From: Octopus sinensis
Taxonomy: Eukaryota
Length of the DNA stretch: 48,755 nt
Reading direction: 5' to 3'
Assembly: GCF_006345805.1 (NCBI RefSeq)
Contig: NW_021834399.1
Span: 1-48,755, forward strand
In this document: piece after piece, positions 331-48,442 of the stretch
Layout: each line of letters starts with the position of its first letter
Position numbering within the stretch: position 1 is the stretch's first letter
Made by a program: the position numbers and the translations under genes
Notes under the pieces: model-generated
The model's database searches: none
The model's input: the letters and a program-made list of their open reading frames with translations, nothing else
What the model was told of the DNA's origin: nothing

Positions 331-699
331 TCAATCATCTGTCTTGGTATTATCAATATTTCTGTTGGTATGTTCGTTTTTCTTGTCTAATCTATTTTCC
401 CTGGCCCTTCTGAAGTGATATAGTCTTCTTACGTTGTGTGTTGCTATTATCTTCGCTATGTTACGGCCATTGGAAAAAGCGAGTAGCACATAGCACGTAC
501 TGAATATTCTATGGTATGTGCTAGACTCGGGAAAGTGTTTCTCGATCGCAGTGTGAAGCAGCTTCGGAATGTTGGACATTATTTGTTTTCCGAATCCGAC
601 ATTATACCACAGAGTAATCCTGGAATCCCTATTACTTTTGACATTATTAAGTATTGTGTGGTTGTTAATGTTAGGGCCTTTCTTTTTACTGTGGTTCAC
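331..699 (-). mobile_element. Penelope-like element fragment (RT thumb / linker region), degenerate
   Basis: ORF contains 'RITLWYNVGFGKQIMSNIPKLLHTAIEKHFPESSTYHRIFSTCYVLLAFSNGRNIAKIIATHN'. This matches the PLE motif R-x-IIWFNPP...FL.LIDKHFP..H..HKIFNRN.VK.SYS...N...II..HN. Confidence 0.65.
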
Positions 700-1099
700 G
701 TGTATGCCTAGAGTGGTTTACTTCACTTCTAAGGTACAGCGTACCGTGGCTTCTGCTGTTATTTCCACCAGATCGCAATAACTATAAAACTTTGCTGTAT
801 GTAATTATAAAATATGAGGAAATAAATCTTGAAGATGAACAGGTCTCCGTATTCTACATCGTTATAATTATTGCTAATATATACTCCAGATTATATTACC
901 ATCCAGAGAAGCGAACGCGGAATAACACATCGGAGGAATTTACAGCGCGATTGACAATTAATAGTAGTCATAAACGTTAAATAGTAATCGATGCAGGTAG
1001 CCGTAACCTAGAACGTAACTGAGAGCCACCACGGTATCCGCCAGATAATATATCCTCCAAACTCACACGATATATATTTGATCATGCTGATCTACTAAC

Positions 1100-1896: not shown

Positions 1897-2059
1897 AAAT
1901 ATGTCATTGTTCAAGGTGTAATTCTCCTTGTTATTAGTTTAAAACAGGCTTGGCAGTGGTAGGAGTTAATCATGTTGTTCAACGATGTGTTGTTATTCAC
2001 ATATTAATATCCCTCCTCTTACTACATATGTGCATATATACAGAGAGAGAGAAAGGGAA

Positions 2060-2616
2060 AGGTCACAAAAGTGATAGAGGGTACTGTCTAGCACCGCTTT
2101 CGCTAGAGAAAGGAGTTAAAGTAACTCAAAGGCTACAAAATCACTGTCTTAATACTTTTGAGTTATTTTAACTCTTACCTTTAACAAGAGCTGTACTAGT
2201 CAGTGCCTGTGTCACTTTTGTGAACGCTATTAATTTGGCTTTAGGTTCTAATTGCTAATAAGCCACCCTTTTAATTTGTTGTTTGCGCTTTTAGCGTTTT
2301 GAAAATCAGCACACGTTTGCAACGGTTTTTTCTTATAAGAGTGATAGAAGTAGCTGAGTTTAACCCAAGGCGTTAAGAGCCGCTGATGAGAATTAAGATG
2401 ATCTACATCAAAGTCCGAAATTGCGATCCGGTTATGTACGCTGGGGACTTACCTTCCTTTGTCAGTCATTAAGACAATGATTTTGTGGCATTTGAGTTAT
2501 TTTAACTTCTATCTTTAGGAAAAAATGGTGCTAGTCGAGTACCCTCCATCACTTTTGTGACCTCTATTAATTTTGCCTTTAGGTTCTAATTGCTAATAAG
2601 CCACCGTTTTTAATTT
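2060..2616 (+). mobile_element. Non-coding PLE/retrozyme-like unit: inverted repeat, tandem direct repeat and hammerhead
   Basis: 2060-2153 is the reverse complement of 2468-2563. 2157-2277 is a direct repeat of 2491-2616. The HHR is at 2378-2433 and the unit is flanked by (GA)n and (CA)n. Confidence 0.75.
2378..2433 (+). ncRNA. Type I hammerhead ribozyme
   Basis: agccg-CTGATGA-gaatt..gatg/catc..aagtcc-GAAA-ttgcga-TC|cggtt. Stem I is agccg/cggtt, stem III is the near-palindrome attgcgat, the cleavage triplet is AUC, and stem II has one mismatch. Confidence 0.7.
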
Positions 2617-2639
2617 ATTACACACACACACAAATGCAT

Positions 2640-11998: not shown

Positions 11999-13350
11999 TA
12001 TGGCTGCCCCCTCGTTATCGAGTATGGCCATTGCACGAAGCTTAACTGTTATCAGTGCTGTGATCGAATGTGACTTTTTAGCCCAGCTAAAGATCTACAA
12101 CGTCTTGTACAGAATTGGCAGCTAAAGCCTTTACCGGCATAGCCGGCTGTAGTTGTAACTGGGCTTCATGTACCTTTGCGTGTCGTTTAAGTCCTCTAAC
12201 CGAATTACACTCCCTTCTACATACCTGACAGATATGATTAGTATGGTATGTAGCACCACCACCAGTGACCTGGTTGTCACTCATCTGTCTTGCTTTATGA
12301 CTATGAAGATGACTCTTGAGTCCAGCTTTGTGAGGCAGGGTCTTGCACAGACACTGCATGTCAGCATCATAGGAAGACCCTTACCATCTGGAAGTGCAAC
12401 AGCGATGCTCTTCCTGACATCCCTCCTTACTTTCCCATGCGCAACTCGAGATTTCTCAAAAGTAGCTGTCTCCTCGTGCACAATCCTTCTCCCCCTGCTA
12501 CAGTCAATAGCTATGCCCTCCCATGTGTCAGGAGAGATGCAAGCATCTCTTAAGGAAGTCTTCAGCAAGTCCTTATACCTCTTTTTTAGTTTATGTGGAT
12601 GTTGTTCTCCTTTAGCTAACTCTCTATAAAAGGTTTTTTTTTGGCATCCTTGAATCCTTCATCCTGACCAGATGACCACTCCATCTGAGCCTTTGCTTTA
12701 ACACAAGAGCTTCTATACTTTCACACCGAGAGCTTTCCAATATTTCAAGATCACTGATGCAGTCTTCCCACTTAATGCCATAGATCTGTCTGAGACACAT
12801 CTGATGGAAACGTTCCAGTTGTTTAAGGTGGTATCGATATGGGACCCACGTCTCGCAGGCATAAAAAGAGAAGGGAATACACATGCCTTGTACACCTTTA
12901 CCTTTGTCTTTCTGCATATGTCTCGCCGATTCCAGAGGCACCTTTCTAGCCTTCTAAAAGTATCACTTGCTTTCCTAATTCTGTATGGAATTTCATTATC
13001 CAGATTGCTATATCTATTAGCAGTGCTTCCCAGGTAGACAAACTGATCAACTACATCAAGTCGTTTACCATACACATAGATATTTGTTTCACTATACTGC
13101 TTACCAGGGGCAGGTTGGTACATGACAACAGTTTTTTTTAGACTGACTGTCAATCCTAAGGTAGTGCAAGCATCAGAGAATGCATTCAAAATGTGTTACT
13201 TATCAATCTCTGTGTGCGCTACTAGATCACAATCATCTGCATACAAAAGGTCTCTTATGATAGAGGTAATTATCTTTGTTTTTGCAGCAAAACGCCTGAT
13301 ATTAAATATGCTGCCAGAGGTTCGATAATGGATGTAAACTCCATATCTGC
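11998..13350 (-). mobile_element. RTE-clade LINE, 5'-truncated and frameshifted (RT C-half, C-terminal C2H2-like fingers, 3' end)
   Basis: 'IRDLLYADDCDLVAHTE', 'GLTVSLKKTVVMYQP', 'FVYLGS', 'YACETW..Y..HLKQLERFHQMCLR', 'LRWSGHLVRMKDSRMPK'. The 3' terminal stem-loop 'gccatactcgataacgagggggcagcc' is followed by a short-repeat tail. Confidence 0.92.
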
Positions 13351-14179: not shown

Positions 14180-15885
14180 AATGAATGCAAACAAAATGCT
14201 TCTTAATATTAATAGATTTATTAAATCTCAAATTATACATCTTATAAAGATATTCATAATTGCTCACTTGTGGAGAATAGAAAACCTAGCGGAGTGGTGG
14301 AGAATTACTCGTTAGAGAGATGTAGAAAGCCATTAAATGATAAACAACATAGCAATAACCTAGCTATTTCAGTAGATAATCTCTTATATAATGGGGAAAC
14401 GAGTAGAATAACTGAAATTCCAGGTGTCTATATAATCTTTGGTAGTAAATTCACAATCAGATTTGTTAACAGGGCAAAACTAATACTAGAATAACTGATA
14501 ATCTGAGCTTGAACTGGAGTAGCGCAGAATGTTTGAGGCATTCTAACATAGAACTCTACCGAAGTTTAATAAACGAAATTGGAAAAGAAATATTATCTGG
14601 TTTAATCTACCTTCCTGTAGCCATGTGCAAACTTCAATTTCAAAGTTCTTTGTGATACTTCGAGAATTTTTTCTCTGCAACACAGGTACTACCAGATATT
14701 TAATAAGTACACGGTAAATCTATCATACTCAGCTACCTCGAAAGTAGTGATACACCTTCCGGCATAAGATTAAAGGCTAGTAAACTGGGTGCCACTGTAA
14801 GATTGTACATGATTAAATGAAACGTCTCATAACTTACTTTTTGTCATTGATAAACGTAAGTCCTTAGAAATGGATGGCATTAACAGACCTAATGATTTGA
14901 ATGACAGGAAGATCGTTACTAGAGCTACAAGAAGGAACTAAGTACTCAGGTAATAAAGCGACCCATATGAAGCAATCTGATTTGCAAACATCTAGAAATT
15001 TTTAAAAAATGTTAATAACTGTACATATGATTACAAATGTATGTCTCCTAATAATTGTCAGTTAAGTGGTAAGTTCATGCCCAGAAATTCAGTTTATAAA
15101 TATACTGTAAAATGCATAACAGGTAATGCACTAGATCGAGAACGAACCACGCCAAAAAAGACATATCAATGTATAAATATTCCTAAGCTAATCCATCTCT
15201 CATTGATAATATATTTAGTTTAAAATCTAAAGGAATTAAATTCAAATCAGATTGGAATATTATTAATTATACGAAATTATACCAAGAAGATAAGCACATT
15301 TTGCCATTCGTATAGACGGGAAGCACTCGAAATCCTTATGGCAGATGATAATTCGTTAAATAAGTGAAGTGAAATAGTAATTAATTGTAAGCACAAATTT
15401 AAATAGACGTTTTAAAAGTAGCCTAATCGAGATAAATCCAATAATGGAACTTGTCCACACTTAAATTACATTTAGTGAACTTATCTACACTCTAATCCGA
15501 ACTGCCTCTCTAAATTCTGATATATTACACGTGTGTCCTATGTTTAAGTTGGACTACTTGTTGAACAATTGTCTGCTTTTATTATGATTCTTATTTTACT
15601 TTTCTTTTACTTATCGTTAATATTATTATCTATTATTACTTGAAATACATCTATTAACGTAATGTATTTGCTATCATGATCTCTTAGTATACCATCGTTT
15701 GAAAGTAATTTACGTAATTTAATTAATATAGTTTTGTTCTGCGCATATTGTATACTGTTTTCGTATCGATTAAGATTTACTTGTTTGGTTTATTTGTTCA
15801 CTGTCGTATCAGTTAAGTGTTTGTCTACATTCTATTTTATTGTTTGCTTATTCATAGCTGAAGAAGCGGAGTGGCTGCATGAAAT
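14180..15885 (+). mobile_element. Penelope-like element fossil (thumb/linker, GIY-YIG C-terminus, 3' region)
   Basis: 'KRNIIWFNLP' at about 14583, 'HRYYQIFNKYTVNLSYS', 'NCQLSGK...SVYKYTV', 'DWNII' and 'EALEILMADDNSLNK*SEIVINCKHK'. CTGAAGA at about 15858 may be a truncated HHR core. Confidence 0.75.
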
Positions 15886-17070: not shown

Positions 17071-17470
17071 CATGTGCAGATACTTGGAAAAAAGTGGGCT
17101 GCTACCCATTGAACAGAAAGGGTGCCGAAAAAGGAGCCGGGGAACGAAGGATCAGCTCTTTATTAATAAAATAATTATCAGGCACTGCAAAAGAAGACAT
17201 ACAAACCTGAGCATGGCATGGATTGACTATCGCAAAGCATAGGATATGATACCACATTCCTGGATAACAAGATCAATGAAAATGAATGGAATAGCAGAAA
17301 ATATGAGAAGCCTTATACGGAATACCATGAAATACTGAAGAACGGAATTGACAGCAGGGAATCAAGTATTAGGGGAGGTGAAAATCAAGAGAGGAATCTT
17401 CCAGGGAGACAGTATGTCCCCACTGATATTCGTGCTGGGAATGATCCCCTTGAGTGAAATACTACATAAA
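17071..17470 (+). mobile_element. R4/Dong-type LINE RT segment, inverted relative to 16455-17070
   Basis: '[20 protein letters not shown]', '[19 protein letters not shown]', 'IKRGIFQGDSMSPLIF'. Confidence 0.88.
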
Positions 17471-17858
17471 ATATCAAGAAAAAAATGCTTTCTAATCGAT
17501 GTATCAATACCAACAGATGACAATGTTTCTCTAAAAGAAACGGAGAAACTTTCAAAATACAAAGATCTAGAAATAGAGGTAACTCGAATGTGGAGCCTAA
17601 AAACAGAAACAATTCCTATCATAGTAGGCGCATTAAGTATGATAAAAAAATATTCAGACAAATACATAACAAAAACATCAGGACTAACAAGTATATATAA
17701 CATACAGAAAGTAGCACTACTAGGCACCGCACACATCCTACGTAAAATACTTTCAAAACAGTGAAAATAAGAGCATCACAACAAACTACAATACATACCC
17801 AAGGCACACAGAGCTGCGCTCGGTAGTGCAGTGAAAGCACATGATAGAAATAACACTA

Positions 17859-20277: not shown

Positions 20278-20696
20278 CTTTTATCTTTTATCATTCAGTT
20301 GTTCCAGTCGTTGAACTGCGACCATTTGGGAGCAATGCTTTGAAGGATTTAGTCGAAGAAATCGACCCCTGAACTTATTTTTAAAGCTTAGTACTTATTT
20401 TATCGGGCTCTTTTGCTAAACCGCTTGTTTACAGGAACGGCAACAAACCAACTCCGGTTTCCAAGCGATGGTGGGAGACAAACACACACACACACATGCA
20501 CGCACGCGCACGCATGCATACACAGACATTTATATATACAACGGGCTTTTTCAGTTTCTATCTATCAAATCCACTCACAGGAGTTTGGTCTGCCTGAGGT
20601 TTTAGCAGAAGGTACTCATCCAGGCTGCCACGAAGTGGGACTGAACCCAGAACTATACGGTTGGGAAGCAGACATTTTACCACACAACCACACCAA
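20278..20696 (-). mobile_element. tRNA-derived SINE family B (internal microsatellite)
   Basis: Colinear with 26892-27285 and 47967-48442. Confidence 0.8.
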
Positions 20697-26800: not shown

Positions 26801-26891
26801 CAGCCTCATGTATGCAAACTTGGTTAAGGAATGCACTTCGACACTTGGTATGTATGTATGTATGTATGTATGTATGTATGTATGTATGTAT

Positions 26892-27285
26892 ACTCTTTTA
26901 CTCTTTTACTTGCTTCAGTCATTTGACTGCGGCCATGCTGGAGCACCGTCTTTAATCGAGCAACTCAACCCCGGGACTTATTCTTTTGTAAGCCCAGTAC
27001 TTATTCTATCGGTCTCTTTTGCCGAACCGCTAAGTAACGGGGACATAAACACACCAGCATCGGTTGTCAAGCAATGCTAGGGGGACAAACACAGACACAC
27101 AAACACACACACGCATATATATATATATGCTTGTTTCAGTTTCCGTCTACCAAATCCACTCACAAGGCTTTGGTCGGCCCGAGGCTACAGTAGAAAACAC
27201 TTGCCCAAGGTGCCACGCAGTGGGACTGAACCCGGAACCATGTGGTTGGTAAACAAGCTCCTTACCACACATCCACTCCTGCGTC
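26892..27285 (-). mobile_element. tRNA-derived SINE family B, near full length
   Basis: Head 'gcaggagtggatgtgtggtaag..ggttccgggttcagtccc', CORE-like 'ccttgggcaagtg', internal (TA)/(TG) and tail 'aagtaaaagagtaaaagag'. Confidence 0.9.
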
Positions 27286-27918
27286 TATATATGTATTTAT
27301 ATATTATAAATGTTTGAATGTATGTATTGAATGTGAGCATTTACGTACCCACCTAAGTTTGTATATAGGTACATATATCTATATATTTATGGATGTATTT
27401 TTCGTTTGTGCATTTGCTTTCCAATATTCCTGATCTGAAATTGTGCGTCGAAACAGATATTATTATATTTTGGGACGGTCATTTTCTTCTTGCCAAATAA
27501 ACACACGCACTATATATTCGTTCTTCACTCGATCATTATTGTTCTTTTTTATCTTATGTCCATTGGCTGAAAATCTTTCGTCAAACACCTGTGACCTCTT
27601 CGGCGACTCTCCATCCTACGTGACTCCTCCAGGAGGAAGCAACGAAAATATAGTATGTGTGTTTATAAAGCAAGAAAAAAGAATGACCATCCAGAAATAT
27701 AACGACAGGTGTATTTTTCCCTCTGCAGTATTCAAGCCGGCCACTTCAAAGTGAGAAGTGCTTTCTGTTTAAGTAGAGACAGCTCTTCTGGTCTATCAAT
27801 ACATGAAATTAGTACACGTGTAGATAAATTTGTAGTCATATGATAAGTGTGCATGACACACTTTAGTACTCTTCTGTGTCTGAGCTTCGCTTCTCTTTAT
27901 GTGTTTGTATGATAAATT

Positions 27919-30065: not shown

Positions 30066-30199
30066 TTCCTTACTTCATTTGCTACAAATGATCACGCTAT
30101 CAGCGACTGTAAACATCTGGTAAACCTTCGCAATGATGATAAACAATAAATGTTTTTCTTCGCAAACTTGCTGTAATCCGTGCACATTTTTTCTCTCTC

Positions 30200-30357
30200 C
30201 ATTTTTTCGTTCTCTTTCCATTTTTCCCTTCTCATTCTTTTCTGAGCGTAGGATCGAAACGTAAAAGACCTTTCCATTCTTCCCGAGCATCAAACTAATA
30301 CACAAGGTTGTTGTTCCCTCACCAGTTTCCGTCCTTTTTTCTGCCAATTTGAACTCT

Positions 30358-30360
<3 letters not shown>
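30200..30360 (+). mobile_element. PLE pLTR remnant with the 3' half of a hammerhead
   Basis: 'gagcgtaggatcgaaacgtaaaagac..ttcccgagcatcaaactaatac' is homologous to 33529-33650 and ends at (CA)n. Confidence 0.65.
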
Positions 30361-30437
<77 letters not shown>

Positions 30438-31837: not shown

Positions 31838-32120
31838 AATTAATATGTTTTGTTAGATAAAATAAATCGAAGCTGAAGTTTCTCCTTCTTTTTACAAACA
31901 TCATAATGATCTTGAAGGCACTTGACTGCCCGTTCTGCACTCTGATTTGTTCTGGGAATTTCCAATTTTTATGGTTCTCGACTTCAAAAGTTTTTTACAG
32001 AGTTCAATGCTTTTTTATGAGCTTGCAGGCTACCAAATAACTTCTGATAATCATGTGCATCGAACATTTGGTCAGTGAACGAAATATCTGTTTAGCTGTA
32101 AGAGATGAATCGAAAAACAT
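31838..32120 (-). mobile_element. Probable DNA transposase C-terminus (hAT-related), degenerate
   Basis: Minus frame reads 'DYQKLFGSLQAHKKALNSVKNF*SREP*KLEIPRTNQSAERAVKCLQDHY...LRFILSNKTY*'. The N-x-x-AERAVK motif resembles the catalytic-Glu helix of hAT-related transposases. MITE-like sequence lies to its left (31250-31600). Confidence 0.45.
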
Positions 32121-32675
32121 TAAGCAAAACTCTTCGAGCTTTCCGTCATCTCCAGTCCGACCCGTCCACTTCACACCTCTTCCCTAACCGACCCCTCCCC
32201 TCTTTCAAACGAGCCCACAACCTTCGAGACCTTTTGGTCCATAGCTCCTTCCCTGACCCTACCTCCCAACCCGGCTCGTTCCCCTGCTCCCGCCCACGTT
32301 GCCGCACTTGCCCTTACCTCTCCAACACCACCCGTCTCACTAGCACCCACCATCGACCCTATCCCATCATCCACTCCTTCACCTGCACCTCCAGCAATAT
32401 TATCTATTGCATCTCTTGCTCTCTCTGCAATTCCTTGTACATCGGACAAACGGGACGCCGCTTGGCTGACCGGTTCGCGGAACACCTTCGTGACATCCAC
32501 CTTGCGAACGACACACCGGTCTCACGCCATTTCCGCTCCACCGGTCACTCCTTGCAACACCTATCTGTGTTCGGTTGTCCTTACACAGAGGCCATCCGGA
32601 TTCCCGTTTGCGCCGTGAACAGGAATTAATCTTCTCTCTTCGCTCTTATACGCCATTTGGTCTCAACTCTCCCCC
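32105..32675 (+). pseudogene. PLE GIY-YIG endonuclease with Cys-rich linker (Neptune-type), one frameshift near 32575
   Basis: 'PLPSFKRAHNLRDLLV', 'PCSRPRCRTC', 'FTCTSSNIIYCISCSLCNSLYIGQTGRRLADRFAEH', 'PVSRHF...H'. It continues in another frame as 'RLRREQELIFSLRSYTPFGLN'. Confidence 0.92.
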
Positions 32676-32965
32676 CTCCTCATCTAACCCCCCTCCCCCC
32701 CTCCTCACCTATCCTTTCCCCCCGACCCCTACTTCTTCAGTCCTTCAACTTTCACCCCTACTCCCCTTCCCTTCTTCCCTCTTTCTCCCTCCCTCTTCCC
32801 CTTCCCTCTGCTCCCTCACTCCCTCTCTCCCCCTCTCCCTCTTTCCTCCTTCATCCCCCTCCTCCCCTTCCTTCTCCCCCATCCTCTCTCCTCTTCCCCC
32901 TTCTCCTCCCCCTCTTCTTCCCCTCGCCTTCTCCCCCCTCTTCTCCCCCTCCCCCTCTTCTCCTC
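32670..32965. repeat. Polypyrimidine (C/T) low-complexity tract
   Basis: About 300 bp almost devoid of purines. Confidence 0.95.
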
Positions 32966-33009
32966 ACTACACCACATGACTTTACACATCACATCACATA
33001 TGATGTGCC

Positions 33010-33345
33010 ATACTAATACACACACCAACTAATACATACTAATACGTACTAATACATACCAGTACATACTAATACTTACAAAACCCTATACATACACACG
33101 TCCAGACCCCGCATACGCACTTATACTCTCTCACAACACACACACACACACCTATACATACCAATACGTACTAATACATACTAATACATACTAATACATA
33201 CACCAACCACATACATACGCACGTCCAGACCAATCTTACGCACTAATACTCTCTCATACACACACACACACACACACCCAATTATACATACTAATACATA
33301 CACCAACCCTATACATACACACATCCAGACCCTCCAACGCACTTT
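33010..33345 (+). repeat. Imperfect 100-130-bp tandem repeat (3 units) with nested 10-mer ctaatacata
   Basis: 'catacatac.cac.tccagacc' recurs at about 33091, 33224 and 33324. Confidence 0.75.
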
Positions 33346-33515
33346 TAGCTGGTCCCTCAATCCTTTTATCAACCCTATTATCTCCCCTTATTTCGCTCTC
33401 GCGTCTCATGTTTGATCTTTGACCTCTGGCCGAAATCAGATCGCCATGTTGATTCGTTAGCTACTGCACGCATTTTTTTTCTCTCCTTCTTTCTGTGTTT
33501 TTCTCTCTCTGTGTA

Positions 33516-33553
33516 TCTTTCTGTTGAAGAGCGTAGGCTCGAAACGTTAAAGA
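33516..33553 (+). ncRNA. Minimal type I hammerhead variant in a PLE pLTR
   Basis: tcttt-CTGTTGA-a-gagc-gtag-gctc-GAAAC-GT-T-aaaga. Stem I is 5 bp, stem II is 4 bp, stem III is the palindrome AACGTT, and core A6 is replaced by U. Confidence 0.65.
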
Positions 33554-33852
33554 CTTGTTTTATTTATATTTCCTGAGCGCCATACTAATACAATTGTTCG
33601 TTTGTTTTCCACCTGCCTTCGTCTTTTGTTTATTTTCATAAAGCTTCCCGTTATATATATATATATATATATATACATACAAATTGAGATAGGGGTTGTA
33701 AATGCAACCCTCCATGGGATAACATATATCCAATATACTGCTAGTGAAGTACCCAACAAAGTTAATACATAAATGTTAAGAATTGCGATGCAATTAATTC
33801 ATTTACTGTATTATATGGGCAAAAGTAAAATGTTTTACCACAAATTAATAAT

Positions 33853-33993
33853 ACAAAATAAGAAAATGGAGAAATAAATCTAAATCAATTATCAACTACC
33901 AGATAATACCCAATCACATAATTTATTAAACCACTACATATGAACATAAGTTGATAATTGATTTAGATGTATTTCTCTATTTTCTTATTTTGT
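33853..33993. repeat. 45-bp inverted repeat with a 51-bp spacer
   Basis: 33853-33897 versus the reverse complement of 33949-33993, with 2 mismatches. Confidence 0.9.
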
Positions 33994-33994
33994 G

Positions 33995-34026
<32 letters not shown>

Positions 34027-34034
34027 AATATTTT

Positions 34035-34220
34035 ACCCTTTACTTGTTTCAATCATGAGACTGAAGCTTAGTCGAAGGAATCGACCCGTGTACTTCTTTT
34101 TTTCCTGAAGCTTGGTACATATTATATCGAACTCTATAGCGAAACCGCTAAGTTACAGAGACATAAGAACACCAACGCCGGTTATCCAGCAGTGGTGTGG
34201 GACAGACAGTAGACACACAC

Positions 34221-34284
<64 letters not shown>

Positions 34285-34426
34285 ACACACACGCGCGCGC
34301 GCGCACACGCACATATGTATGTATGATGGGCTTCTTTCAGTTTCCGAAGGTGTCACGTAAGGAGACTGAACCCTGAAACATGTGGCTGACAAGAAAATTT
34401 CTTACCACACAGTCACACCTTGCGCT
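34035..34426 (-). mobile_element. SINE family B, internally deleted
   Basis: Family B blocks 'gaaaccgctaagttac', 'gggcttctttcagtttccg', 'gactgaaccc' and 'cttaccacacag'. Confidence 0.8.
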
Positions 34427-34439
34427 TGCATATACATAC

Positions 34440-34635
34440 ATGTACGTATGTATGTATGTATGTATGTATGTATGTATGTATGTATGTATGTTTGTATGTA
34501 TGTATGTATGTATGTATGTTTGTATGCATGCATGTATATATGTATGTATGTTTACATGTATGTATGTACGTATGTATGTGTGTATGTATGTATGTATGTA
34601 TGTATGTATGTATGTATGTATTATCTATGTATGTA
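34440..34635. repeat. (TATG)n array
   Basis: Direct reading. Confidence 0.95.
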
Positions 34636-41641: not shown

Positions 41642-41672
<31 letters not shown>

Positions 41673-41705
41673 GATATATAATATATATAATATATATATA
41701 TATAT
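41375..41705. repeat. (TCTG)n/(TCTA)n and (TA)n arrays
   Basis: Direct reading. Confidence 0.93.
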
Positions 41706-41714
41706 ATCTTCTAT

Positions 41715-42063
41715 TTCTTTTACTTGTTTCAGTCATTAGACTGCGATCATGCAGGATCACAGCCTTCAAAATTTTTAGTCAAACGAATCGACCCCAACAT
41801 TTTCTGGTACTTAATCTATCGTTATTTTTTGAGCCGAACCACTAAGTTATGGAGACGTAAACTCACCAACACTGGTTGCAAAATGGTGGAACAGGGGACA
41901 AACACAGACAAAAAAACACACAAACACACATGTGCATATACGCGACAAGCTTCTTCCAGTTTCCGTCTTCCAAATCTACTCCTAAGGGTTTGGTGGCCCG
42001 AGGCTATAGTAGAAGGCATTTGCCCAACGTACTAACCAGTGGGACTGAACCTGGAATCCTGTG
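41715..42063 (-). mobile_element. SINE family B, head-truncated
   Basis: 'tttacttgtttcagtcattagactgcg', 'gccgaaccactaagtta', 'cccgaggctatagtagaag', 'cagtgggactgaacc'. Confidence 0.85.
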
Positions 42064-43752: not shown

Positions 43753-44344
43753 TGTGTATATTTAGGGCTAAAAACCACTATGTGGACAGCCATATGTTAG
43801 AAGTAGATCACATACGATTAAACTACAAAGAAAGAATGTTCTCCAGAGAAAATCCAGCGGACACCAGAACATAGGCGGGCAAGACAGATGAAAATGACAT
43901 AAAAATCAAGAATTAATCGTATACCGGTTTCGTCTATCACCGAATAAATTACTTACGTAATCCTTCGTCCGTAGATTCATCAGTCCTCCAGAACTCAGAA
44001 CTCAGACATTTGAAATTAAGCCCAATATAATAAGTAGAACTAAGCATGTGTCTGGTTTTATACAGAAAACTGGTGGTTAGTTTTACAAATTATATTGCTT
44101 TTGGAAAGATCGTACTGATGAATCTACGGACGAAGGATTGCGTAAGTAGTTTATTCGGTGATAGACGAAACCGGTATACGATTAATTCTTGATTTTTATA
44201 TAATTTTCACCTGTCTTGCCCGCCTATGTTCTGGTGTCCGCTGGATTTTCTCTGGAGAACATTCTTTCTTTGCAGTTTAATCGTATGTGATCTACTTCTA
44301 GCATATGGCTGTTCACATAATGGTTTTTAGCCTAAATATACACA
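43753..44344. mobile_element. Fold-back element: about 231-bp inverted arms (about 96% identical), 129-bp spacer, containing a hammerhead ribozyme
   Basis: 43753-43984 versus the reverse complement of 44114-44344 shows about 9 substitutions and 1 indel by manual alignment. TA/TG microsatellites lie nearby on both sides. Confidence 0.93.
44108..44183 (+). ncRNA. Type I hammerhead ribozyme with extended stem II
   Basis: gatcgta-CTGATGA-atcta-cggacgaa-gg-attgc-gtaa-gtagt-ttattcg-gtga-tagac-GAAAC-CG-GT-A|tacgatt. Stem I is 7 bp, stem III is the palindrome ACCGGT and the triplet is GUA. The first stem II pair is an A-C mismatch. Confidence 0.8.
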
Positions 44345-47966: not shown

Positions 47967-48146
47967 AGGCGTGGCTGTGTAGTAAGAAGCATGCTTCCCA
48001 ACCATATGGTACTGAGTTCAGTTCCGCTGCGTGGCACCTAGGACAAGTGTATTCTACTATCGCCTCGGGCCGATTAAAGCCTTGTGAGAAGATTTGGTAG
48101 ACGGAAACTCAAAGAAGCCTATCGTATATACAAATATACATACATA

Positions 48147-48177
<31 letters not shown>

Positions 48178-48442
48178 TCACACACACACAACACACACAC
48201 AACACACACACTCACACACACATATATATATGTTTATGCGTGTGTGTTTGTTACCCGACCGTCTCTTGATAACCAATGTTGGTGTGTTTACGTCTCCGTA
48301 ACCTAGCGTTTCGGCAAAAGACACCAATAAAATAAGTACTAAACTTACAAAAAATAAGACCTGGTGTCGATTTGTTAGATTAAAAGCTGTGCTCGTGCAT
48401 GGTCACAGTCAAATGACTGAAACAAGTAAAAGAATAAAAGAA
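47967..48442 (+). mobile_element. tRNA-derived SINE family B with expanded internal (CA)n
   Basis: A-box-like 'gtggctgtgtagtaag', B-box-like 'gagttcagttcc', 'gcctcgggccga..aaagccttgtgag' and tail 'aaatgactgaaacaagtaaaagaataaaag'. Confidence 0.9.

Follow-up and report, generated by a model that had tools for sequence, protein, structure and literature searches.

The insertion at positions 2060-2619 of the window, which is the whole 48,755-nucleotide stretch of Octopus sinensis DNA analysed here (contig NW_021834399.1), is built from three copies of a terminal repeat, one of them inverted, and a short unique segment that carries a type I hammerhead ribozyme. By comparison with published elements, this arrangement is the insertion layout of a Penelope-like element (PLE) with the interior shrunk to ~185 nt. 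The reading we favour, with moderate confidence, is that the element is a non-autonomous, retrozyme-like mini-PLE of ~335-340 nt, which would have been inserted in trans by PLE enzymes from mixed templates. It is classed neither as an autonomous PLE, having no ORF, nor as an active retrozyme, having one hammerhead. The parts of the locus are as follows.

2042-2052, plus strand: (AG)n run just beyond the left junction
2060-2156, minus strand: copy A, a 5′-truncated terminal-repeat copy, inverted, head-to-head with B and without the tail
2157-2280, plus strand: copy B, a 5′-truncated direct copy, with core to ~2226 and tail-equivalent at ~2227-2280
2281-2463, plus strand: unique segment U, without ORF homology, holding the hammerhead
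2287-2380, plus strand: predicted long hairpin in U, with a 15-bp helix pairing 2287-2301 with 2366-2380; borderline
2369-2442, plus strand: type I hammerhead, core 2383-2428
2464-2563, plus strand: copy C core, the pLTR-like 3′ portion, with three small hairpins common to A, B and C
2564-2619, plus strand: tail-like extension of 56 nt, in B and C and missing from A in the alignment
2620-2632, plus strand: (AC)n run at the right junction

The preliminary description had given the order as inverted copy, direct copy, hammerhead segment and full copy, and blastn, alignment and the hammerhead descriptor all bear this out. Its boundaries were close, but A extends to 2156, B to 2280, C spans 2464-2619 and the hammerhead 2369-2442. 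In blastn, 2060-2153 matches 2468-2563 in inverted orientation (84% over 96 nt, E 6e-23) and 2157-2280 matches 2491-2619 directly (82% over 129 nt, E 9e-27). A three-way alignment has 83 of 97 columns identical between A and C, 105 of 124 between B and C and 55 of 70 between A and B, with local scores of 151, 126.5 and 73, respectively, against maxima of 54.5, 42.5 and 38.5 in 500 shuffles each. Copy A reaches 2156, its match to C beginning at 2464 and including a 1-nt gap, and B follows at 2157 with no filler between them. Relative to C, both A and B are truncated at the 5′ end: A starts 35 nt and B 62 nt downstream of the cut site. At the other end A stops at the equivalent of 2563, and B and C run 56 nt beyond it, C ending at 2619; the extension, like its length, is seen at one locus. 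The offset of 334 nt reported earlier between the direct repeats holds at the start of B and rises to 339 by its end because of indels, giving a period of 334-339 nt with a GC content of 37.5-38.3%.

No tandem array was detected at 2060-2619 by TRF and no other copy of the repeats, nor a second copy of U, elsewhere in the window by blastn. No target-site duplication was found, the best local match between left and right flanks scoring 20. The simple repeats that flank the insert are a weak sign of target preference, such repeats being common in the window. Continuation of A into the left flank was rejected, as 728 of 1000 shuffles did as well. A decayed extra unit in the right flank, suggested by a 12-nt match at an offset of 340, was likewise rejected, being very gappy and far more diverged than B is from C. 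The match is an identical 12-mer at 2331-2342 in U and 2671-2682, and the weak, gappy similarity of U to 2632-2750 around it (5 of 1000 shuffles, 4 of 476 window tiles) is probably chance. By eye, a possible short intron lies at 2461-2518 on the plus strand, with GTCAGT at 2461, a branch-like TTTAAC, a pyrimidine tract and AG at 2517-2518; the AG is kept in A (2095-2135, minus strand) and C and lost in B. An intron has been reported inside Penelope pLTRs.

Searches for further copies gave no match to the element in phage and plasmid collections and none in prokaryotic genome contigs (0 and 0 in two exact-pattern scans). Three of four probes were absent from the supplement of PMC8557442, and the fourth, a 9-mer, matched once in an unrelated context. 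As no second copy of the family was found, the unit length and the B/U junction rest on one locus.

A typical Penelope has two direct pseudo-LTRs (pLTRs) with a shorter, inverted pLTR adjoining at the 5′ end, and it may carry a tail of 31 bp (Arkhipova et al, 2013, PMC3846280). PLE insertions are described as showing 5′ truncation, partial tandems, an immediately adjoining inverted truncated copy, a tail of 30-40 bp and microsatellites as targets (Craig et al, 2021, PMC8557442). At 2060-2619 the direct pLTRs B and C form a partial tandem, the inverted A stands head-to-head against B at 2157 and the target is a simple repeat with no discernible target-site duplication, the last being weak evidence. 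The layout had been taken in the preliminary description as the sign of one reverse-transcribed circular RNA, with the partial tandem as a retrozyme trait. Inversion, partial tandem and tail together are instead the standard PLE signature in these sources; partial tandems are described for PLEs in PMC8557442, and retrozymes are described as dimers to 62-mers in PMC7229834.

The closest system is that of the EN+ PLEs (Penelope/Poseidon, Neptune and Nematis), including Pen2a_Av of Adineta vaga (PMC3846280) and PAc of Anolis (PMC11167929). The element shares with them the shorter inverted repeat at the 5′ end adjoining a direct repeat, the second direct repeat with a tail-like extension, the type I hammerhead near the 3′ end and the simple-repeat or AT-rich target. 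Unlike them it lacks the single ORF for reverse transcriptase (RT) and GIY-YIG endonuclease of an autonomous EN+ PLE, its interior is only ~185 nt, it has no target-site duplication, its extension is 56 nt against the published 30-40, and its hammerhead lies in the single-copy part, with A and B truncated downstream of it. Non-autonomous PLE derivatives that form pLTRs and head-to-tail insertions are described among the Chlamys PLEs, for example MRC1 (PMC8557442). Those belong to a green-algal clade with an N-terminal EN, mostly without hammerheads according to the same source, and they match an autonomous partner, whereas the element at 2060-2619 matches no other hammerhead-bearing end in the window (best local scores of 19-25 against four such ends).

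The hammerhead motif is genuine. Its core is complete, with CUGAUGA at 2383-2389, the G10.1-C11.1 pair (2390/2416), GAAA at 2417-2420 and AUC ending at 2428, and cleavage is predicted after C2428, the site named in the preliminary description. Helix I, of 5 bp, an internal loop and a further 5 bp, carries the motif past the earlier limits of 2378-2433 to 2369-2442, and in an isolated 85-nt fold its pairing probability is 0.79-1.0. Helix II (2390-2416) consists of five positions with one A-C mismatch, an AA/AA loop and 4 bp; it misfolds in prediction, with a pairing probability of at most 0.03, and the predicted ribozyme is possibly decayed. Helix III has 2 bp closed by a self-complementary loop, and the octamer forms a self-duplex of 8 bp (-5.9 kcal/mol). 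It could pair along its full length with a second copy, which is what a ribozyme acting as a dimer would be expected to do (PMC4209133), and the weak helix III would imply cleavage as a dimer. Loop 3 is of the canonical palindromic type and loop 1 is closed. The type I descriptor matched twice in the window (2383 and 44115, both plus strand) compared with one match in 60 shuffled windows. No Rfam family was found in the window at the gathering score, and a permissive scan returned microsatellite-driven matches and a weak HH9 match of 15.8 bits (gathering score 52, E 4). The element has the type I hammerhead with intact core of a retrozyme, with helix II misfolding in prediction and the Rfam match below threshold. 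A degenerate core (CUGAAGA ... GAAAC), apparently of a fourth family, is also present at 1806-1890 on the minus strand, 170 nt to the left of the insertion; its helix II is long, and helix I is not clearly recognisable.

No ORF over 66 aa is present in 2060-2619. A tblastn search with 150 PLE-type proteins gave no match in the element, and a protein search found no homologue of the 66-aa minus-strand frame that crosses the B/U junction. The element has the size and composition of a retrozyme unit (150-450 bp, GC below 50%, non-coding) only if the period is the unit, and at this one locus the 334-339 nt may be the true monomer or merely the truncation length of the last copy. Folding the monomer had been proposed as a check on the retrozyme reading. 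As modelled, closing the period into a circle gives a fold no stabler than those of its shuffles (z -0.38 for 2157-2490 and -0.04 for 2281-2619, with 33 of 100 and 51 of 100 shuffles as stable); decay of the insertion could hide a highly self-paired circle. The hairpin in U begins 6 nt past the B/U junction and is borderline, with a z of -1.77 and 10 of 200 shuffles as stable, and its helix length of 15 bp, equalled in 13 of 200 shuffles, is not significant at 0.05. In the circular period the pairing probability of helix I drops to 0.02-0.06, and the upstream 15-bp helix is predicted to sequester helix I of the hammerhead in the whole period.

Metazoan non-LTR retrozymes, for which PMC7229834 and the review PMC7761336 were used, resemble the element in being ORF-less and below 50% GC, in size (350-390 nt in the mussel Mytilus and 330-350 nt in axolotl; PMC7229834) and in a type I hammerhead with a weak palindromic helix III suited to dimeric cleavage. 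They differ from it in that the element has one hammerhead, no array and a PLE-type inversion and tail-like extension, in that its circle is not predicted to be highly self-paired, and in its predicted blocked helix I, which is described as unusual for metazoan retrozymes except some from mussel (PMC7229834). For Li et al (2026, bioRxiv 10.64898/2026.07.22.740005), an active retrozyme needs two or more successive units, each containing a complete hammerhead; 2060-2619 holds one hammerhead, and the genomic copy cannot excise a monomer or circle by itself. The two labels overlap, since retrozymes are argued in the same preprint to be pLTR-derived non-autonomous PLEs, and what has to be decided is whether B-to-U occurs as a natural junction. 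In both the preprint and PMC7229834, the mobilisation of animal retrozymes is described as an open question.

For the mini-PLE, the following course of insertion would account for the observed anatomy. The unit would derive from a PLE terminal repeat and be inserted in trans by a PLE reverse transcriptase/GIY-YIG endonuclease, which would nick both strands at a simple-repeat site. A purified PLE protein is described as nicking and extending both strands, preferring AT-rich DNA, and as beginning reverse transcription at two internal sites in the RNA that delimit the tail (Frangieh et al, 2024, PMC11167929). At this locus, cDNA primed from the right flank would begin at the outer site, at the tail end (2619), copy C and U, enter a further unit, B, and stop at 2157, while cDNA primed from the left flank would begin at an inner site 56 nt upstream and copy the 97 nt of A. 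The two truncated cDNA ends would then be joined head-to-head. The RNAs or array units copied into A, B and C would already have differed from one another, as a heterogeneous multimer or as several templates. The participation of PLE enzymes, the two priming sites and B-to-U as a natural junction are what we infer from the layout. The presence of PLE machinery in the genome (337-843, 14547-14794 and the GIY-YIG fragment at 32102-32629) supports the mini-PLE reading. That the period is a true unit is supported by its size near that of the mussel and axolotl retrozymes, the canonical-type loop 3 and closed loop 1, the lack of coding trace in U and, at borderline strength, the hairpin 6 nt after the B/U junction. 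Against the mini-PLE stand the single locus, the 56-nt extension, the lack of a target-site duplication, the circle that is not highly self-paired, the misfolding helix II, the U hairpin that is not significant by length and the lack, in the window, of an autonomous partner with a matching pLTR.

It is quite possible, although we lean the other way, that the locus is instead a stack of three independently 5′-truncated 3′ ends of a long autonomous PLE, with U and C together being its last ~340 nt. B and A would then be shorter ends, which template jumping and priming on the opposite strand had added; the period would be a truncation length and there would be no monomer or circle. This would leave the same published PLE signature (PMC8557442, PMC3846280), mixed templates would be expected, and PLE hammerheads are described as occurring mostly singly, in truncated copies, or in closely spaced pairs on opposite strands (PMC4209133). 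The window itself holds relevant examples. At 43753-44344 there is a head-to-head pair of truncated hammerhead-bearing ends from another family, with arms at 43753-43984 (minus) and 44114-44344 (plus) that are identical at 222 of 231 positions; the pair is younger than the 2060-2619 insertion. Its plus arm is ~340 nt, and the distance from cut site to end is 168 nt compared with 191 nt in the 2060-2619 element. A short duplicated filler lies at the junction of the pair. A third family couples a GIY-YIG ORF with a hammerhead remnant: its 3′ end at 32102-33652 (plus) consists of a GIY-YIG fragment with a CxxxxCxxC linker followed by a long pyrimidine-rich tract, with a minimal hammerhead remnant at ~33521-33553, 104 nt from (TA)n at 33652. 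The stacking of ends is opposed by the order of B and then U, which reproduces the canonical PLE layout, where the sequence coming naturally after the 5′ pLTR constitutes the tail (PMC3846280), by the hammerhead, which is canonical-like and not minimal, and by U, which is without coding trace and opens with the borderline hairpin.

The differences among the three copies bear on the number of templates. A, B and C differ by 14-21%, and in the three hairpins of the C core 46 of 47 cells are paired across the copies. No two-sided compensatory change was found in these hairpins among A, B and C, and a shuffle control for covariation was uninformative with three sequences (500 of 500). In the 70 columns common to the three copies, 5 of 20 substitutions fall in stems against 10.45 expected (P 0.003) and 2 break pairs against 6.5 expected (P 0.002), in a test that was prompted by inspection and covers three sequences and 20 changes. 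A rotation control that allows for clumping gave 2 of 70. Five aligner settings returned the same alignment (P 0.0085/0.0055), and neutral simulations reached P≤0.01 in 0 of 150 and 0.05 in 5 and 2. As substitutions avoid the RNA stems, the copies would seem to come from different RNA templates and not from one circle; DNA-level palindrome repair could also spare stems. On this comparison of sequences, A, B and C had probably already diverged under RNA-structure selection before insertion, as several RNAs or as a heterogeneous multimer.

This pattern makes improbable the model built on the preliminary description, in which a single retrozyme circle of ~334 nt was copied 1.4 times round by reverse transcription, with an inversion at one end, and then decayed neutrally. 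That description is supported in part: the ORF-less, AT-rich unit has the size of a retrozyme at 334-339 nt, carries a type I hammerhead and is present as ~1.4 units plus an inversion. The unit size, low GC and hammerhead type fit a single circle. A and B both begin downstream of the cut site, circular templates have been proposed for PLE tandems (PMC4209133), and the private substitutions (5, 10 and 5) do not reject equal ages (p 0.29) and could stem from one event. A single circle, however, predicts that B and C were identical and then decayed blindly to structure, which the stem-sparing differences speak against, and the tail is more conserved than the core (3 of 54 positions differ between B and C in the tail against 14 of 68 in the core; Fisher p 0.019). 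The one hammerhead, the lack of an array and the circle no stabler than its shuffles also weigh against it, as does the dominance of uncleaved RNA as substrate, with cleavage dispensable, in the only PLE reported as tested in vitro (PMC11167929). The mobilising machinery is probably that of a PLE whether the locus is a mini-PLE, a stack of truncated ends or the product of one circle.

Inverted repeats, like microsatellites, are prone to instability and may lead assemblers astray. Local DNA-level duplication and inversion of a solo hammerhead-bearing terminal repeat, or an assembly artefact of the sort for which PMC8557442 notes problems, is nevertheless very improbable, as copies 14-21% different exclude an assembly duplicate and local duplication leaves the stem-sparing divergence and the exact PLE geometry unexplained.

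By itself the element is one old, fairly ordinary transposon insertion among Penelope-type remains and of low importance. There is a lesser prospect, which we regard as rather unlikely, that units of 335-340 nt form a real family of invertebrate retrozymes, with the locus as junction-level evidence for insertion by PLE enzymes, on both strands, from two initiation sites and from an RNA pool differing by 14-21% with its hairpins kept. Were this so, the phylogenetic case for retrozymes as non-autonomous PLEs would become a testable mechanism, and the pattern would fit the proposed fast RNA-level evolution of these motifs. If the unit is a true monomer, PLE enzymes would have left their mark on a retrozyme in the form of the inversion and tail. 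No published inversion-plus-tail junctions for retrozymes were found in the open-licence literature or by a term search of the main text of bioRxiv 10.64898/2026.07.22.740005. For a true monomer, a cheap way to tell one circle from many templates across the genome would be to compare the copies inside single insertions.

The window is AT-rich, most kb having ~25-45% GC, and rich in microsatellites; it is DNA of animal type in which no tRNA genes were detected. One PLE-type protein group has left decayed ORF remnants, from the RT thumb/linker region, at 337-843 (minus) and 14547-14794 (plus), with 148 and 97 tblastn matches, respectively, from 150 proteins. The remnant at 337-843 gave 245 phmmer matches at E≤0.001 (best 2e-8) and nothing in a word-indexed protein search or Pfam; among the 10 long matches scanned, only one fits GIY-YIG, just under the curated cut-off. 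A link between this remnant and the element was considered and is unsupported, the two being 1.2 kb apart with unrelated repeats between them; the 3′ end of the remnant is outside the window. The GIY-YIG fragment at 32102-32629 (38 of 60 candidates) has a Pfam E of 8.5e-4, below the cut-off, and its linker would be Neptune-like by the description in PMC8557442. Sister ends of the 32102-33652 family occur at ~30185-30365 and 1095-1275.

Short inverted, near-complementary pieces seen by eye at about 1317-1342 and 1546-1573 flank a (TA)/(TG) microsatellite and are possibly the ends of a SINE-like repeat. Decayed ORF fragments at 12281-13195 (minus) and 17339-17764 (plus), with nothing in Pfam, we take from family resemblance to be LINE-type. 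A dispersed repeat with at least five copies, 68-84% identical, is found at 20284-20694, 26849-27398, 33991-34551, 41662-42063 and 47967-48441.
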